DNA of 32,000 bases from Xylanibacter ruminicola 23 (GTDB lineage: Bacteria > Bacteroidota > Bacteroidia > Bacteroidales > Bacteroidaceae), in assembly GCF_000025925.1 (NCBI RefSeq), contig NC_014033.1, forward strand, positions 3,420,001 to 3,452,000, read 5' to 3'. The notes beneath the pieces were generated by a model, which saw only the letters and a list, made by a program, of their open reading frames with translations, was not told the origin of the DNA and made no database searches. Numbering within the stretch: the first letter of the stretch is position 1; each line of letters opens with the position of its first letter. Below, in pieces: positions 26,154 through 31,836 of the stretch. The translations under genes and the position numbers were made by a program.

Positions 26154-27572
26154 CTAGTATTTTGTTCTTGCGGTCTTATGGCCTTGTTCGATAACGATTC
26201 CTCGGTAACTATTAGGAGCCAGGGTTCCGCTGAGTGTGTAGGAACGGGCAGAGCCGGAGGGAATGGTGGTGGCAGGAGCTGGGATGGCGGAAGCCTCGGT
26301 GTCTTTGATGGCATCGTATTCCGTCATTGTTTCGGCCATGCGGGCATCGAGATCTGACAGACGATAGAGTCCATCGCTATTAGCCGTCAGTCCTTCGATG
26401 GTGACGGGGAGAATCATAGGTGGCTCTTCGACAGAAAGCAATGTGCGGTTCTGTAACTGACTGACGGACTGATATACCAGATTGATGGCAACGTACTCAT
26501 CTGTACCGTTGCTCCACTTCTCGAACACGAGTTTAGAACCGATGGGGGTATGTAGTTCCAGAGCCTGTTCGGTTTCTGGATATACGAGACGCAGGGCTGC
26601 ACCGATACTGGCCAGATTGCTGTCGTGACCACAGAGGAATGTGAACTTACGTCGGTCGTGGTGCAGTTCTTCACGGATACGACTCACTAATGGGTAAGCC
26701 AGGTTTACGGCAGCACTATGAGTTGTGAAGAGCAAAGCGTCGTATACCTCCTTGATGCCGCAGATGGCTCGCCATTGCTCCTGAGTCAACTCATGGCCGA
26801 AGGCCGACAAGCTCTCGCTTTCGTAGCATTGCAGCACCAGAGCGTCGGCTACGCTATTGGCCAGCTTAAAGCCGCCTGTCATCTTTGGTTCGTCGCCCTT
26901 CTCTAATGTAAACTGCGTGTCATCGTACCAGAAGTGCGTTGTGTCGTTCTGCGCTGCTGGTGAGTGCGCCATATCAATGATTTCCTCTACCAGCGTTAGG
27001 GTGGGCTGTACAGACTGCATCCAAGCCTGTGGACCGTTGTGCATGGCGTTTATCTCGGCGAGAACCTGCTGGCGGTAGGTATCGTTCATCTTTGTGAACT
27101 GTGGCGTAAACAAGGGATCCATCTTGTCCTCCTCGTACTTGTGCTTAATCTCCACGTTGGCGAAGGGCAGGAATCCGGCTGAGAAATACTTAGCTGTGGC
27201 AAATGTACGCTGGCGAGAGTTGGCGTAGAACAGCACATCGTCGCCATCGGGACGGTAGTTGTCGGGCAGCAGTCCTTCGCCTACCAACCATTTGCGGAAA
27301 AACTGTCCCATCTCTGTTTCAAGTACGCCGCCACGCAATGATAACTGACTGCCTGGCGATGTCCACTTAAACCATTCATAAGGCGTTACTCGCATATAGG
27401 TGGCACCGCCCGATGCCAGTGGTGAGCGGATGTTGTGGCGACTCATCACTACGACCTCCTTCAGCTGATACTTAGCTTTGAAGTCGGCCGATCGCTTTGT
27501 CTGTGCCTGTGTACTGATTGTTGCTGTCATGGCAGCAAGCATTAATAAAAGTAGTTTTTTCATTCTGTCCAT
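26154..27572 (-). CDS. periplasmic histidine-type acid phosphatase, Agp (glucose-1-phosphatase)-like
   Basis: 472 aa with a signal peptide. The catalytic RHxxR motif is VVMSRHNIRSPL and the HD motif is LCGHDSNLASI. Other stretches (FYANSRQRTFATAKYF, TPIGSKLVFEKW, YQSVSQLQN) are collinear with my recollection of E. coli Agp. Confidence 0.85.
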   Translation of the reverse strand: MDRMKKLLLLMLAAMTATISTQAQTKRSADFKAKYQLKEVVVMSRHNIRSPLASGGATYMRVTPYEWFKWTSPGSQLSLRGGVLETEMGQFFRKWLVGEGLLPDNYRPDGDDVLFYANSRQRTFATAKYFSAGFLPFANVEIKHKYEEDKMDPLFTPQFTKMNDTYRQQVLAEINAMHNGPQAWMQSVQPTLTLVEEIIDMAHSPAAQNDTTHFWYDDTQFTLEKGDEPKMTGGFKLANSVADALVLQCYESESLSAFGHELTQEQWRAICGIKEVYDALLFTTHSAAVNLAYPLVSRIREELHHDRRKFTFLCGHDSNLASIGAALRLVYPETEQALELHTPIGSKLVFEKWSNGTDEYVAINLVYQSVSQLQNRTLLSVEEPPMILPVTIEGLTANSDGLYRLSDLDARMAETMTEYDAIKDTEASAIPAPATTIPSGSARSYTLSGTLAPNSYRGIVIEQGHKTARTKY

Positions 27573-27584
27573 ATGTTATTTTTT

Positions 27585-29390
27585 TTACGCGTTGTTATTT
27601 GTTTGTTTATAGGTGGTTGGCGTCATGCCGTACTTGGTGCGGAAGTTGCGGGTAAAGGTGTCGGCATTGGTAAATCCGCTGGCCTGACTTACCTGCTCAA
27701 CGTTCAGGTCGGGCTGGCTGTTCATCAGACTTACAGCATAATCGAGGCGCAGTTCGCGAACGTAGGCTGGCAGCGAAACACTATCGCTACCCTGTGCAAA
27801 GGCGGCACCAATGCGTTCCTTCGACAGGCCTGTACGATCGATGAGCGACTGTCGGTCAAAGTCGGGCTGCAAGAACAGTTTCTCGTTTTCAATCAAATCG
27901 CGCAGGCAGAGGAATAACTGCTCGTCGGTAAGTGTCGTGAAATCAGAGATGCTAAGTCCTGCTCCAATTGTACTTGGTTCAGCAGTTTCAGCTTCGACCT
28001 TTGGTGAATTTGTTGATTCGGCCGAACGGTTAGCGGCTTTCAGTTCTTTGTATTTCTCCTTATACTCTACGGCCTCGGTAATCTGTCGGGCCAGGATGCG
28101 GTTGTGTCGCTGGGTGATGCGCCACTGCAGGAAGGCATAGAGACCGAAAGCCAGGATAAGTAAAGCTGCTGTGGTGACGGCAATGCTGATGGCTGTTACG
28201 AATCGGTTCTGGGCGCGCTGTTCTGCTATCTGGCGCTCCTTGCCCTGCGTGTCGTAGATGGTAGCCAGTTCGGCACTTTCGCTACGCTTCTGGCGTACAA
28301 GGGCCGTATCGTAGACTTCGGCTATCTGCATGGCCACATGGAGGGCCGAGTCCTTACGTCCGGCAAAATAGTTGGAACGGAACTTAGGCAGCAGATTCTG
28401 ACCGATGGTTTCTAAATCGTATTCATAACCCCAATCCTTAATAAAACGGTCGAGCTCGGTATAGTTGTCGGCAGCTTCGGCATAGCGACGGGCTTCTACC
28501 AGGTATCCGCAGCCGTTGATGCGTCCCTCGAGTGTTTGTCCAAAGTCGGTTTTCATATATTGGGCATAATTGCGGGCGGCTTCGGCTGTTTTTCCGTTCA
28601 TCTGGTACACTTGTGCACGATGCAGCCAAACTAAGGCACGCAGTGTTTTTAATTCTTTTTCAATCGGCTTGGGCTCTTTCTCATAGATAGTTACAAGCGA
28701 GTCCATGCGATCTACCCATACGCCGGCCTCATTCAAGTGGTGATTGATGTGACTAACGGCGATATTCTCTAAGGTTTGAATGCTGGCTGCTATCGGTCGG
28801 TTTGTAGAGTCGTTAACTGTGCGAAGTACCCACAGATAGGCATCGTCATAACTCTTCTTGGCTTCGTCGAAGCGTTCCAACATTATCTGGGTGTCGCCTA
28901 GGCTTAAGTAAAGCGTCTGTAATTCGACAGGACAGTATGGATTGTCCACATCCTTCAGCTTGTCGATAAGCAGGAGGGCAGTGCGCATGGCATTATCGTA
29001 GTCGCGATCGGTGGTTAGCATGATAACCAGGTTAGTGCCTGCATGTATGTACTCCCAGAAGTCCTCGGCAGGAGGATTCTCGATAGAAACAACACGACGG
29101 AAGCACTCGATGCACTTATCCATCTGTCCCATCTGGAAATAAGCTACGCCACGATAGCCTTCGGCACGTATCGGCGAGAGTTCGCCAACTTCGGCCAAAC
29201 TGTCAGTAACGGCCAGGAAATGCTCAAAGTCGCCAGAAAATCTAGCAGCCAGAGCAATACTGTCGCCACGTGTGGAAATGCGCTTTGCGGGGATGTCGCC
29301 TCGTTTTTCACCGCCCTTACCGCCACAGGCCGTGAGCACGGTAAGGATGATAGCTATACTTATTAAATATATGCACCTACAAATTTTCAT
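27585..29390 (-). CDS. membrane-anchored one-component regulator: lipoprotein signal, TPR-like sensor, one TM helix, coiled coil, AraC-type HTH
   Basis: 601 aa. N-terminus MKICRCIYLISIAIILTVLTACGG, then a repetitive helical TPR-like region. TM helix is FVTAISIAVTTAALLILAFGLYAFLQW. The C-terminus is LRLDYAVSLMNSQPDLNVEQVSQASGFTNADTFTRNFRTKYGMTPTTYK. It ends 12 nt before the phosphatase gene. Confidence 0.85.
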   Translation of the reverse strand: MKICRCIYLISIAIILTVLTACGGKGGEKRGDIPAKRISTRGDSIALAARFSGDFEHFLAVTDSLAEVGELSPIRAEGYRGVAYFQMGQMDKCIECFRRVVSIENPPAEDFWEYIHAGTNLVIMLTTDRDYDNAMRTALLLIDKLKDVDNPYCPVELQTLYLSLGDTQIMLERFDEAKKSYDDAYLWVLRTVNDSTNRPIAASIQTLENIAVSHINHHLNEAGVWVDRMDSLVTIYEKEPKPIEKELKTLRALVWLHRAQVYQMNGKTAEAARNYAQYMKTDFGQTLEGRINGCGYLVEARRYAEAADNYTELDRFIKDWGYEYDLETIGQNLLPKFRSNYFAGRKDSALHVAMQIAEVYDTALVRQKRSESAELATIYDTQGKERQIAEQRAQNRFVTAISIAVTTAALLILAFGLYAFLQWRITQRHNRILARQITEAVEYKEKYKELKAANRSAESTNSPKVEAETAEPSTIGAGLSISDFTTLTDEQLFLCLRDLIENEKLFLQPDFDRQSLIDRTGLSKERIGAAFAQGSDSVSLPAYVRELRLDYAVSLMNSQPDLNVEQVSQASGFTNADTFTRNFRTKYGMTPTTYKQTNNNA

Positions 29391-29409: not shown

Positions 29410-29417
29410 CAAAGGTA
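29410..29417 (-). promoter_or_regulatory. -7 promoter box (TACCTTTG) for the TPR-AraC regulator
   Basis: The reverse complement of caaaggta matches TAnnTTTG, 19 nt upstream of the ATG at 29390. Confidence 0.55.
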
Positions 29418-29573
29418 CGGGTTATTTTCTAAAAACCCAAATAAAAAATCAAGTTTTTATCTTTTCCCCCTTCAATATTCCATTCATAAAGATTTAGAAT
29501 CTGTAACCACCGGCAGAGAGAACCGAATACATGCCGAAACTCTTTTTGCGTAGCCAGTTGAATTTAGTTAGCA

Positions 29574-29672
29574 TTAATTATCATTGTGAGTCATGTCGAG
29601 CACCAACATTCTTACCACCAGGATAAATAATATCACGGCGACGACTAACAGAACCATCAGCGCTATTTCCAT
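29574..29672 (-). CDS. 32-aa hydrophobic microprotein A (paralog of B)
   Basis: Not in the ORF track. Hand translation: MEIALMVLLVVAVILFILVVRMLVLDMTHNDN. It shares the C-terminal VR-x-x-VLDM-(T/S)-HN with ORF B, and a roughly 20-nt conserved block cattgtgRStcatgtcgag. Confidence 0.5.
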   Translation of the reverse strand: MEIALMVLLVVAVILFILVVRMLVLDMTHNDN

Positions 29673-29728
29673 GTTTTTAGAAGTTTATCACACCAATATT
29701 GAAATGCATCTTTTTAAGATATATACTA

Positions 29729-29830
29729 TTACAGTTTACCATTGTGGCTCATGTCGAGTACCCACAATCTTACAATCATTGCCAACACTATTAAGGCGAA
29801 TGCCATCAGGATAATTAGATTTGTTTCCAT
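29729..29830 (-). CDS. 33-aa hydrophobic microprotein B (paralog of A)
   Basis: Not in the ORF track. Hand translation: METNLIILMAFALIVLAMIVRLWVLDMSHNGKL. The ATG is 33 nt downstream of a TATCTTTG -7 box. Confidence 0.55.
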   Translation of the reverse strand: METNLIILMAFALIVLAMIVRLWVLDMSHNGKL

Positions 29831-29863
29831 ACTTTTATTACTTTTGTTTTTAAATTTCTGGTG

Positions 29864-29871
29864 CAAAGATA
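29864..29871 (-). promoter_or_regulatory. -7 promoter box (TATCTTTG) for microprotein ORFs B and A
   Basis: The reverse complement of caaagata matches TAnnTTTG. Repeat copy L1 lies 28 nt further upstream, over the -33 region. Confidence 0.5.
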
Positions 29872-29899
29872 TAACAAAAAGACAGTATCTGCAATAGCA

Positions 29900-29938
29900 C
29901 AGACAAATGGTCGGGTGGTTTCAGACAAATAGTCGGGT
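29900..29938 (-). repeat. two copies (L1, L2) of the 17-bp motif YCCGAC-N-ATTTGTCTG, minus orientation, 22-bp phasing
   Basis: The plus strand reads CAGACAAATGGTCGGGT (29900-29916) and CAGACAAATAGTCGGGT (29922-29938). Confidence 0.85.
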
Positions 29939-30063
29939 ATTTGTTCGCGATAACTACACCTATTATAGATATAAAATTGTTTAAAACCACAAAACAAAAT
30001 GTAGTTTTATCGTGTGTTTTGCTATCATTATCTTGAAATTAAGTACCAAAAGTTGTGTAATTT

Positions 30064-30143
30064 GTCCGACGACGTGTCGTTTTGTCCGACAGATTGTCTG
30101 AAATGTCCGACGATTTGTCTGAAACCACCCGACTATTTGTCTA
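30064..30143 (+). repeat. four copies (R1-R4) of the same 17-bp motif, plus orientation, 20/21/22-bp phasing
   Basis: GTCCGACGACGTGTCGT (30064, degenerate), GTCCGACAGATTGTCTG (30084), GTCCGACGATTTGTCTG (30105), ACCCGACTATTTGTCTA (30127). R4 lies 28 nt upstream of the -7 box at 30172. Confidence 0.85.
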
Positions 30144-30171
30144 AACCCTTGTGGGAATGGATTTTTTGCCT

Positions 30172-30179
30172 TACCTTTG
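30172..30179 (+). promoter_or_regulatory. -7 promoter box (TACCTTTG) driving an orphan short transcript
   Basis: Exact TAnnTTTG match. No ORF longer than 12 codons lies between it and the terminator at 30299-30349. Confidence 0.5.
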
Positions 30180-30185
30180 CAACCA

Positions 30186-30349
30186 GAAAATTTAATCGCT
30201 CTTTCTTTTTTTTAAGTAATAGATATAACCTAATGATCAATATCCTTTTGACAATGAAGTGCAGTGCGTAATGGAACGAAGCGTTAACTGCCAAACGTGC
30301 CCCAGGCCAACTATCTCGCTAACGGATAGAAGGCCTGGGGCCTTTTTTT
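30186..30349 (+). ncRNA. candidate small RNA (about 165 nt) or 12-aa micro-ORF transcript ending in a strong terminator
   Basis: It is bounded by a promoter box and an intrinsic terminator: GCCCCAGGCC (30299-30308) pairs with GGCCTGGGGC (30332-30341), followed by T7, with an inner CTATC/GATAG hairpin. The only ORF is ATG 30233..30271, MINILLTMKCSA. Confidence 0.4.
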
Positions 30350-30479: not shown

Positions 30480-30655
30480 TAGCCTCGACCTTCGCCCGTA
30501 AAGGTTCGCTTAGCCGCGATTAATTGGGAATGTGAGTGAGAATCTCCGACTGTCCCGCAGCAGTGAACTCCATTATGGCTCCTAAGCATCAATGCCATTG
30601 CCCGTTTGGGTGAGAAGGCGCTTGGGAGTGGAGGAAAGTCTGAAGACCAGCCTTT
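30480..30655 (+). promoter_or_regulatory. cobalamin (B12) riboswitch
   Basis: The conserved core TTAATTGGGAATGTGAGTGAGAATCTCCGACTGTCCCGCAGCAGTGAA matches the consensus GGGAA..GGTG.GAATCC...CTG.CCCGCA.C.GT.AA. The B12 box GGAAAGTCTGAAGACCAGCC is at about 30634-30653. Exact ends are uncertain. Confidence 0.85.
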
Positions 30656-30716
30656 TTCGGTATTTGCTAAATGCTCTCGATGTAAGGGCGTGAGGCGCAA
30701 CTTAATTTTTGTGGGT

Positions 30717-31112
30717 ATGAAACATGAATCAATCGTCGTGGTATACGACAGTTGTCAGGCTATTGCAGAAGAAATAGCCGACAAGCTTGGCGCTGAAACT
30801 ATCAGCGTACAGAGTATTAACAACAGGCAGATAGAAAACTGCCAGAGTTTTGTTCTTGCATTAGAGTTTATGGCTGATGGAAGTATGACTCCCCATTGGC
30901 AGTGGGCTTGTCAAACGTTGCGTGGTGCTAGCCTAAGTGGAAAGAACTTTGCCGTGTTAGTGGCATTAGGTAACAAACTGAATCATGATGCAGATAAAAT
31001 TTGCCATGAACTGCGTGAACGCCATGCGCACATTGTTGGCGAACAGCTATATGCTGAAACGCCCCAATGCAATCTCGAAAATTGGATATGTTCTGTTTCA
31101 CCTAATTTATAA
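30717..31112 (+). CDS. flavodoxin-fold protein, divergent paralog of the neighbouring fldA with FMN-binding loops deleted or replaced
   Basis: 131 aa from the ATG at 30717 (the upstream part of the track ORF runs through the riboswitch). It aligns by eye to the 31342..31836 product: IVVVYDS----CQAIAEEIADKLGAE vs IVIYGSSTGTCEAIAEKIASKLGCE; TLRGASLSGKNFAV vs TLQGADLSGKTIAI; ENWICSVSPNL vs DAWLAAITPSL. Confidence 0.7.
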   Translation: MKHESIVVVYDSCQAIAEEIADKLGAETISVQSINNRQIENCQSFVLALEFMADGSMTPHWQWACQTLRGASLSGKNFAVLVALGNKLNHDADKICHELRERHAHIVGEQLYAETPQCNLENWICSVSPNL

Positions 31113-31341: not shown

Positions 31342-31836
31342 TTAAAGACTTGGAGTAATAGCTGCCAACCAGGCATCGATACGTGTATCGGTCTGGTCGT
31401 CCTCATTGATGTCGTCGAGAGGCAGGCCAATAAACTTTCCGTCGATAACTGCTTCAGAATCGTCGAAAGTGTAACCATCGGTTTCAACGCTACCAATAAA
31501 GTTGGCACCGCTGTCTTTGATGCCGTTATAGAGCTCACCCATACCACCTACAAATGTATCACTATAGGTAGAACAGTCGCCACAACCAAAGATGGCGATA
31601 GTTTTTCCGCTCAGGTCGGCACCCTGTAAGGTCTTCAAACCGTCGTACCAATCGTCCTGCAGTTCGCCAGCTCCCCAGGTAGAGGTACCTAAGATCAGAT
31701 TCTGGTTTGCGGCAACGGTTTCGGCCGAAAGATCCTGTACATTCAAGGCTTCGCAACCCAGCTTCGAGGCTATCTTCTCTGCGATGGCCTCGCATGTTCC
31801 TGTAGAGGAACCATAAATTACAATAGTTGAATTCAT
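31342..31836 (-). CDS. fldA: flavodoxin (long-chain, FldA type)
   Basis: 164 aa. FMN phosphate loop IYGSSTGTCE, Trp loop GTSTWGAGE, FGCGDCSTYSDTF, and long-chain insertion. Confidence 0.9.
   Translation of the reverse strand: MNSTIVIYGSSTGTCEAIAEKIASKLGCEALNVQDLSAETVAANQNLILGTSTWGAGELQDDWYDGLKTLQGADLSGKTIAIFGCGDCSTYSDTFVGGMGELYNGIKDSGANFIGSVETDGYTFDDSEAVIDGKFIGLPLDDINEDDQTDTRIDAWLAAITPSL

Follow-up and report, generated by a model that had tools for sequence, protein, structure and literature searches.

Background

In enterobacteria, the pairs MgrB-PhoQ, SafA-PhoQ and MzrA-EnvZ each associate a sensor with a single-pass membrane peptide of about 30-65 residues that is under the control of the very system it acts on. 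These peptides work through transmembrane (TM) or juxtamembrane contacts, as feedback or connector elements, and as a rule they are not encoded beside their sensors. Here, we describe a locus of Xylanibacter ruminicola 23 (NCBI RefSeq assembly GCF_000025925.1, contig NC_014033.1, positions 3,420,001 to 3,452,000; hereafter the window, i.e. the whole 32-kb stretch of DNA that was analysed) in which two small open reading frames (sORFs) lie near the gene of a predicted membrane-spanning regulator and that of a structured RNA. The names pepA and pepB are labels given to the two sORFs in the present analysis, coordinates are positions in the window unless a locus is named, and L001 to L024 are the related loci used for comparison.

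The window peptides resemble MgrB, SafA and MzrA in that they are single-pass, lie beside a membrane-spanning regulator and have a promoter with repeats specific to the module. They differ from them by having no sequence similarity to them and by their putative partner, a one-component regulator combining a tetratricopeptide repeat (TPR) region, a TM helix and an AraC-type DNA-binding domain (TPR-TM-AraC) instead of a histidine kinase. The cassette moreover holds two paralogous peptides and a structured RNA, and the interaction between peptides and regulator is a proposed one.

Another point of comparison is offered by the co-component membrane transcription-factor systems ToxR/ToxS, VtrA/VtrC and TcpP/TcpH (Kinch et al., bioRxiv 10.1101/2022.04.08.487670). 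As in systems of the ToxR/ToxS type, a membrane-tethered DNA-binding protein is encoded in our locus with a small membrane partner, within a fast-evolving cassette. Whereas the ToxR type has an N-terminal DNA-binding domain and a partner with a periplasmic lipocalin-like sensor, the helix-turn-helix (HTH) of the window protein is C-terminal and its TPR sensor lies inside the regulator itself. The window partners are almost pure TM helices devoid of a periplasmic domain, unlike those of the ToxR type.

Short hydrophobic peptide genes located beside a TPR-type HTH regulator are also found in the SHP/Rgg and RRNPP systems of Firmicutes. The receptors of RRNPP systems reside in the cytoplasm; the corresponding propeptides carry a Lys-rich N-terminus and undergo export and processing. 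In the window, by contrast, the TPR region is predicted to be extracytoplasmic, the regulator spans the membrane, and the peptides start with Met-Glu and are apparently retained as TM helices. With the type I toxin systems Fst/RNAII, TisB/IstR-1, Zor/Orz, Ibs/Sib and Ldr/Rdl, the pair shares its small size, a polar tail after a hydrophobic helix, the presence of multiple copies and a small RNA (sRNA) gene nearby; it is set apart from these toxins by the lack of homology, a fixed partnership with a regulator, a bicistronic arrangement and the lack of relatives on mobile elements.

Neither the peptide family nor the RNA nor the regulator architecture is described in the libraries and the literature searched, and none has homology to the functionally closest systems. 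To our knowledge, which literature searches did not contradict, Bacteroidota have few characterised small membrane proteins, and no TPR-TM-AraC one-component regulator has been characterised so far. The cassette is compact and experimentally tractable, i.e. a regulator, a candidate operator, a structured RNA and two membrane proteins of some 30 residues, and it is carried by cultured X. ruminicola strains.

Coding status and family range of pepA and pepB

An earlier note, made from the letters of the window alone, had reported two tandem minus-strand sORFs here and read them as type I toxin-like or sensor-modulator peptides. Their coordinates, an Arg at position 21, Val-Leu-Asp at positions 24-26 and a + strand string common to the 3' parts of both genes (cattgtgRStcatgtcgag) were all confirmed. 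To judge from their sequence evolution, pepA and pepB almost certainly code for small membrane proteins. The case for coding at the protein level is based on the ratio of non-synonymous to synonymous changes per site (pN/pS), which between lineages ranges from 0.18 to 0.35 for pepB and from 0.23 to 0.6 for pepA at pS of 0.3-0.8, and on the distribution of variable sites over codon positions 1/2/3 (16/9/18 in pepA and 19/9/25 in pepB, i.e. in the order 3>1>2). Replacements are confined to I, L, V, M, F and A, and the hydrophobic character is thereby kept.

The excess of synonymous over non-synonymous changes per site among homologues agrees with the selection on the peptides that the earlier note had assumed. 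The argument advanced there, namely that the tail is the part best conserved at the nucleotide level, proved unsound, since conserved synonymous sites indicate nucleotide-level constraint, gene conversion or codon preference. Synonymous sites of the tail (codons 22-30) were indeed less changed than those of the TM part in several comparisons, the most distant ones not being among them, and this under-substitution provides weak evidence of one of these three causes and not of selection on the peptide.

Within the window, the family profile matched pepA and pepB only (E of about 1e-20; next best match at E 0.6), and it found an intact homologue, usually paired, in every related locus. Wherever a locus offers enough sequence, both ORFs are intact and the A-then-B order is preserved. 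A word-seeded search of 5.8 billion proteins, using an alignment headed by a 45-residue upstream-extended ORF, gave 26 close clusters; an exhaustive HMMER scan of 1.84 billion representatives with a narrower profile gave 12 clusters at 50% identity, and a broader profile gave 155 clusters at 90% identity. Homologous small ORFs thus exist elsewhere, and all clusters with a named source come from relatives of Xylanibacter/Prevotella ruminicola. Four loci were present in the species-genome collection (X. ruminicola D31d, X. ruminicola Ga6B6 and two rumen metagenome-assembled genomes), with one locus per genome, and eight in the metagenome collection.

The pair had been called unannotated. This is correct insofar as it has no family name, no family being found for pepA or pepB in Pfam, NCBIfam or PADLOC; it does not hold for some NCBI and JGI records of X. 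ruminicola, where identical or nearly identical products appear as 'hypothetical protein'. The longer orthologues gave only sub-threshold noise against Pfam, and the peptide region had no match in Rfam. Literature searches on type I toxin-antitoxin systems or small proteins in Bacteroides, on TPR-AraC regulators and on the peptide motifs retrieved nothing about the pepA/pepB family.

Sequence and membrane character of the peptides

PepA and PepB share 44% identity; among their 14 invariant positions are M1, E2, R21, V24-L25-D26-M27, H29 and N30. A recent tandem duplication was not upheld: the two form an old, ordered A-then-B pair kept across lineages. Each peptide starts with Met-Glu, has one hydrophobic helix of about 23 residues and ends in a short polar tail; Asp26 is nearly invariant. 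The helix reported for each is borne out by Kyte-Doolittle means over the best 19-residue window of 2.76 (PepA) and 3.33 (PepB), and it is retained through the family. The helical hydrophobic moment is low (0.2 for PepA and 0.05 for PepB), so that both helices would be uniformly hydrophobic and non-amphipathic.

In the wider family, M1, E2, L5, L8 and D26 alone are invariant or nearly so. Arg21, which had been singled out, is present in both window peptides; it is not a family feature, this position being occupied by R, K, Q, E or G. The tail varies from 5 to about 70 residues, that of the L004 PepA reading YDEPQTRKK, and PepB orthologues of other lineages reach 67-98 residues, with an extra charged helix rich in Lys, Arg and Glu after the TM segment. 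Because Glu2 is invariant and positive or polar residues come after the helix, we infer a topology with the N-terminus outside and the tail in the cytoplasm.

Linkage to the regulator gene

The regulator gene adjoins the peptide genes in 21/21 assessable loci, as well as in one place known from the gene table alone. This linkage extends over at least eight flanking contexts, three gene orders and regulator identities of 69-100%. Searches seeded with the peptides always recovered a TPR-AraC gene. Conversely, three regulators at 73-75% identity chosen without reference to the peptides each had family members immediately downstream, and the most distant regulator (69% identity) also had a family member beside it; the search for regulator homologues covered the best 120 matches, all of them at 73% identity or more. 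The genomic flanks encompass flavodoxin-like and acid phosphatase genes, ClpS/ClpA, GreA/HIT with GH2, GH43 with a hybrid two-component system gene, a P-type ATPase with DUF3108, VapE-like and thioredoxin-family genes, and a leucine-rich repeat protein. The peptides keep their link to the regulator throughout, and in most cases that to the RNA as well. Taken together, the sequence comparisons indicate that peptides and regulator very probably form a dedicated cassette, which stays together while gene order and genomic neighbours change. Between the two readings of the earlier note, the link to a sensor or regulator was thus substantiated, and the toxin reading, examined below, found no testable feature in its support.

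The regulator has Pfam HTH_18 and TPR matches and only two hydrophobic segments. Its layout comprises a signal peptide with lipobox LTAC, a TPR region of about 370 residues, a TM helix at about residues 397-423 and an AraC-type HTH. With its parts in this order, the protein would span the membrane as a one-component regulator whose sensor is extracytoplasmic. In the PDB, its sequence matched generic TPR and HTH entries only.

The gene order is regulator, pepA, pepB in most loci, and pepA, pepB, a gene or remnant resembling outer membrane proteins (OMP-like), regulator in the window, L002 and L005. Between the window (27585-29390) and L003 (1030-2880), the regulator DNA is 79% identical and its position relative to pepAB is swapped. 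The flanks of these two loci are 93% identical in DNA, with 92.5-94% on the sRNA/flavodoxin side and on the phosphatase side. A regulator that is both diverged and relocated points to allele replacement or fast evolution.

Promoter and candidate operator

The -7 box consensus of Bacteroidota is TANNTTTGY (PMC12632263). A box of this kind precedes pepA in the window and is kept at -40 to -55 from pepA in the loci that retain the promoter. Scans for TAnnTTTG across loci detected no second sense box before pepB; the sole sense-strand box would consequently serve both genes. The gap between pepA and pepB is 11-61 nt across loci, i.e. 11-12 nt in several and 56 nt in the window. The lack of a second box and these short gaps argue that pepAB is bicistronic. 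In L019, pepB is followed by a hairpin with a T9 run, and the next gene has a new -7 box in front of it, which indicates that the unit ends with the peptides in this locus; the window has no terminator after pepB. A scan for sigma-70-type promoters performed no better than on shuffled sequences, the model not being applicable to Bacteroidota.

The alignment of 15 loci revealed up to four repeat units upstream of the -7 box, with a spacing of about 21 bp and the core CCGAC-N5-GTCTG. In the window, 0.14 matches to this motif are expected and five are present, none of them outside 29900-30143. Two of the five point towards pepAB; the other three, together with one degenerate copy, face the opposite way. 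The units are conserved in front of both divergent promoters. They constitute a candidate operator for the adjacent regulator, and the proposition that this regulator controls the pepAB promoter is, from the sequence, one to which we give about even weight.

An inverted duplication of 81 nt (arms at 29862-29942 and 30101-30181, 74% complementary) yields two divergent homologous promoters 158 nt apart. It looks like the product of the rearrangement that put pepAB upstream of the regulator. An invertible promoter made from this inverted repeat was considered and rejected, the arms being the two promoters themselves and not the flanks of a single one.

Structured RNA of the module

The divergent promoter of the window precedes a structured RNA, whose fold has a z-score of -2.72. 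It was matched in 17 loci by nhmmer and includes two hairpins with compensatory changes and a conserved single-stranded CCUUUUUGACAA; a comparison of the RNA with Rfam gave no match. In L013, L019-L021 and L024, the promoter is followed on the same strand by the RNA, which has no U-run, and then by pepA. This position and the missing U-run suggest that it forms the 5' leader of the pepAB mRNA in those lineages. A second copy of the promoter comes after the RNA in L016, L017, L022 and L023. From the leader arrangement and these second copies, the RNA would belong to the same module as the peptides, lying in cis in some lineages and being detached in that of the window.

Table 1. Features of the pepAB locus in the window
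Feature	Position	Strand	Remarks
Regulator gene, 601 residues	27585-29390	-	Lipobox signal peptide, predicted extracytoplasmic TPR region, one TM helix, cytoplasmic AraC-type HTH
-7 box TACCTTTG(C) of the regulator	29410-29417	-	Directly upstream of the regulator gene; identical in L002
OMP-beta-barrel-like gene remnant	29494-29574	-	Fills the space between pepB and the regulator promoter
pepB	29574-29672	-	32 residues, second of the pair, paralogue of pepA; MEIALMVLLVVAVILFILVVRMLVLDMTHNDN
pepA	29729-29830	-	33 residues, first of the pair, predicted single-pass membrane protein gene; METNLIILMAFALIVLAMIVRLWVLDMSHNGKL
pepAB -7 box TATCTTTG(C)	29864-29871	-	Read as TATCTTTGC from 29871 to 29864; 41 nt upstream of the pepA ATG
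Two repeat units CCGAC(C/T)ATTTGTCTG, 21/22-bp spacing	29900-29936	-	Proximal half of the four-unit array of other loci
Opposite array, three to four 21-bp units	30065-30143	+	Belongs to the inverted 81-nt copy of the region around the pepAB promoter
-7 box TACCTTTG(C) of the divergent promoter	30172-30179	+	Aligns with the peptide promoters of other loci
Structured RNA	30182-30349	+	Predicted stand-alone transcript in the window, strong terminator at its end

Proposed mechanism

Our best explanation, held with moderate confidence, is that of a signalling cassette made of regulator, RNA and peptides, in which the peptides are accessory or feedback partners of the regulator. The TPR domain would sense something in the periplasm, and the regulator would bind the 21-bp units and drive pepAB as well as the RNA. 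The peptides would in turn act, in the membrane or at its cytoplasmic face, on the TM or juxtamembrane segment of the regulator, as accessory or feedback subunits. Such a logic would resemble that of MgrB-PhoQ or ToxS-ToxR. The specific point that the peptides act back on the regulator, and not on another membrane target, is more tentative and stays somewhat on the doubtful side. Should the peptides be accessory or feedback subunits, the MgrB/ToxS logic would reach a new regulator architecture and a new phylum; it would also justify looking for overlooked sORF partners of other membrane-bound regulators in gut and rumen Bacteroidota.

Several points weigh against this explanation. That the ORFs are translated, that the peptides insert into the membrane and touch the regulator, and that the regulator binds the repeats are all deduced steps. 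The core of the repeat unit is partly palindromic (GAC-N5-GTC), unlike a classic AraC direct-repeat half-site, so that a different protein might bind the units. With the N-terminus outside and the C-terminus inside, almost nothing of the peptides would be found in the periplasm; they could then make no contact with the TPR sensor, only with the TM or juxtamembrane segment. All loci come from one clade (rumen Xylanibacter/Prevotella, regulator identity of at least 69%), and part of the synteny is accordingly shared ancestry. L015, L016 and L022 have one peptide only. In L007 (1599-2699) and L008 (430-1647), the pepAB promoter and the distal repeat units are deleted and the regulator ORF is fragmented, both peptide ORFs and the divergent RNA being intact; this arrangement may be a decaying copy or an assembly error. 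In L001 and L009, the stop codon of pepA has been lost, giving a fusion with an OMP-like gene. Single-peptide loci, loci with a decayed regulator and pepA fusions imply that the pair is not strictly required as a pair.

The fusion just mentioned (2164-2970 in both L001 and L009) runs in frame from pepA into the OMP-like gene at ...VLDMSHNGKK-AFLVIAFMTAGIVAHA, with a junction common to two independent assemblies. Met27 of PepA could also serve there as the start of a signal peptide.

Alternative explanations

Small membrane proteins such as MgtS, MgtR, AcrZ and KdpF act on other membrane targets. PepA and PepB could likewise be the main product of the regulator, an effector output exerted on a transporter, a protease, a secretion or insertion machinery or the bilayer, with no feedback. 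We consider this main alternative rather unlikely, even if the same linkage and promoter evidence applies to it as to the feedback model, from which the computational evidence does not separate it. It would fit with the conservation of the peptides alone (often with the RNA) beside the regulator, with the terminator that belongs to the L019 unit and makes the peptides its end product, and with the variable downstream genes, which often code for envelope proteins (OMP-like barrels, histidine acid phosphatase, TonB-dependent receptor); the neighbourhood holds, on the other hand, no conserved gene that would be a candidate target.

According to the other reading of the earlier note, the peptides would be membrane-depolarising type I toxins whose translation an antisense RNA or the nearby sRNA restrains. 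Their size, hydrophobicity and paired arrangement fit such toxins, their membrane activity being itself a prediction from sequence, and the conserved sRNA close by is divergently transcribed in the window, a layout superficially like that of tisB/istR-1 or zor/orz. In four loci, namely the window, L002, L003 and L005, codons 3-5 of pepA even contain an antisense TAGATTTG box. This box is absent from L001, L004, L007, L010 and L012-L016, and transcription from it would lead away from the ORF; scans for TAnnTTTG over 13 loci found antisense boxes to be sporadic, with no conservation of position, which upholds the earlier failure to see a convincing antisense promoter by eye. The same applies to the complementarity between sRNA and mRNA, which had not been seen either: an ungapped scan with shuffled controls in four loci gave a longest exact match of 8 nt, with scores reached by shuffles in 11-85% of trials. 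Full-length RNAduplex of sRNA against mRNA was uninformative (-65 kcal/mol, for a shuffle mean of -68).

The properties of the mRNA do not speak for a toxin either. Its 5' untranslated region is short and A-rich, and the 301-nt pepAB mRNA is not unusually folded (z = -0.85; 20/100 shuffles fold at least as well). The two genes are bicistronic behind a single promoter, each genome of the species collection has a single locus, and several lineages carry the RNA in cis as a 5' leader, with the same orientation as the genes. No toxin family was matched in Pfam, NCBIfam or PADLOC, and in Pfam at E<=1 no type I toxin family was retrieved for the peptides, Syndecan (0.34) being the sole match. The Val-Leu-Asp that had been compared with Fst is a three-residue coincidence, BLASTP against the Fst sequence quoted in that note producing no alignment at E<=100. 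No relatives were found on viral contigs with the narrower profile, nor on plasmids by tblastn. Finally, tails of 5-70 residues and an in-frame OMP-like fusion are tolerated. A toxin function is, in our view, very unlikely, and the outcome removes a tempting, unsupported claim that Bacteroidota have here their first type I toxin-antitoxin system.

The termini of peptides are frequent ligands of TPR domains, and the locus joins a receptor with TPR and HTH to short hydrophobic peptide genes whose promoter bears putative operator repeats. PepA and PepB, or fragments of them, might be the cognate ligands of the periplasmic TPR domain in a self-contained circuit, with the regulator auto-inducing them through the 21-bp array and the RNA as a second output; we regard this as highly improbable. 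It would, if true, amount to cell-cell or envelope-state signalling of a kind not described in Bacteroidota. The related proposal that the peptides are signal precursors, whose processed tails or whole chains would be sensed by the extracytoplasmic TPR region of a regulator that then auto-induces them, as in an RRNPP or SHP-Rgg-like circuit turned inside out, appears more improbable still. Within the clade of the window, conservation of the peptides is highest in the C-terminal motif VLDM(T/S)HN; the tail nevertheless varies in sequence and length across the family (YDEPQTRKK in the L004 PepA; 5-70 residues). The peptides begin with Met-Glu and lack both a positively charged n-region and a signal-peptidase site. 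Positive charge flanks the helix on its C-terminal side alone, which predicts a cytoplasmic tail, and no conserved processing or export genes are found nearby.

Least probable of all is that the sORFs are leader peptides (upstream ORFs) whose translation, and not their products, would control the downstream genes by attenuation or translational coupling: their position before genes of signal-peptide proteins with overlapping or abutting starts in several loci, the missing terminator after pepB in the window and the somewhat under-substituted synonymous sites of the tail are outweighed by downstream genes that change between loci, a terminator and fresh promoter after pepB in L019, purifying selection along the whole TM segment that keeps a hydrophobicity no pure upstream ORF needs, and PepB orthologues of 67-98 residues, too long for a typical leader peptide.

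Other features of the locus

The OMP-like remnant of the window has 18/20 residues identical to residues 101-120 of the L002 protein and a weak match to Pfam OMP_b-brl. The gene is intact in X. ruminicola D31d (L002, 3168-3722), where it encodes 184 residues; DNA alignment with L002 shows that two internal deletions left about 60 nt of the middle and the 3' end in the window.

A near-identical signal peptide, MKKFFLMVVAAM(M/T)AT...NAQ, opens unrelated genes downstream of the pair, i.e. histidine acid phosphatase and OMP-like barrels (L003 3202-3290, L014 5972-6060, L009 3723-3790 and L002 3140-3200). This suggests recombination junctions inside the signal-peptide coding sequence and a cassette-like exchange of the genes after pepB. 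In L003, the pepAB pair lies between the regulator and histidine acid phosphatase genes. In the window, a secreted histidine acid phosphatase of 472 residues (His_Phos_2; 26154-27572, minus strand) starts 12 nt after the regulator stop codon; its best NCBIfam match, glucose-1-phosphatase/inositol phosphatase, is below the family cut-off.

On the other side of the locus, a cobalamin riboswitch (RF00174; 30485-30669, plus strand, 78 bits, E 1.3e-18) precedes a flavodoxin-like ORF (30606-31112). The listed TTG start of this ORF falls inside the riboswitch, and its true start is therefore probably further downstream. A second, canonical flavodoxin gene is located at 31342-31836 on the minus strand.

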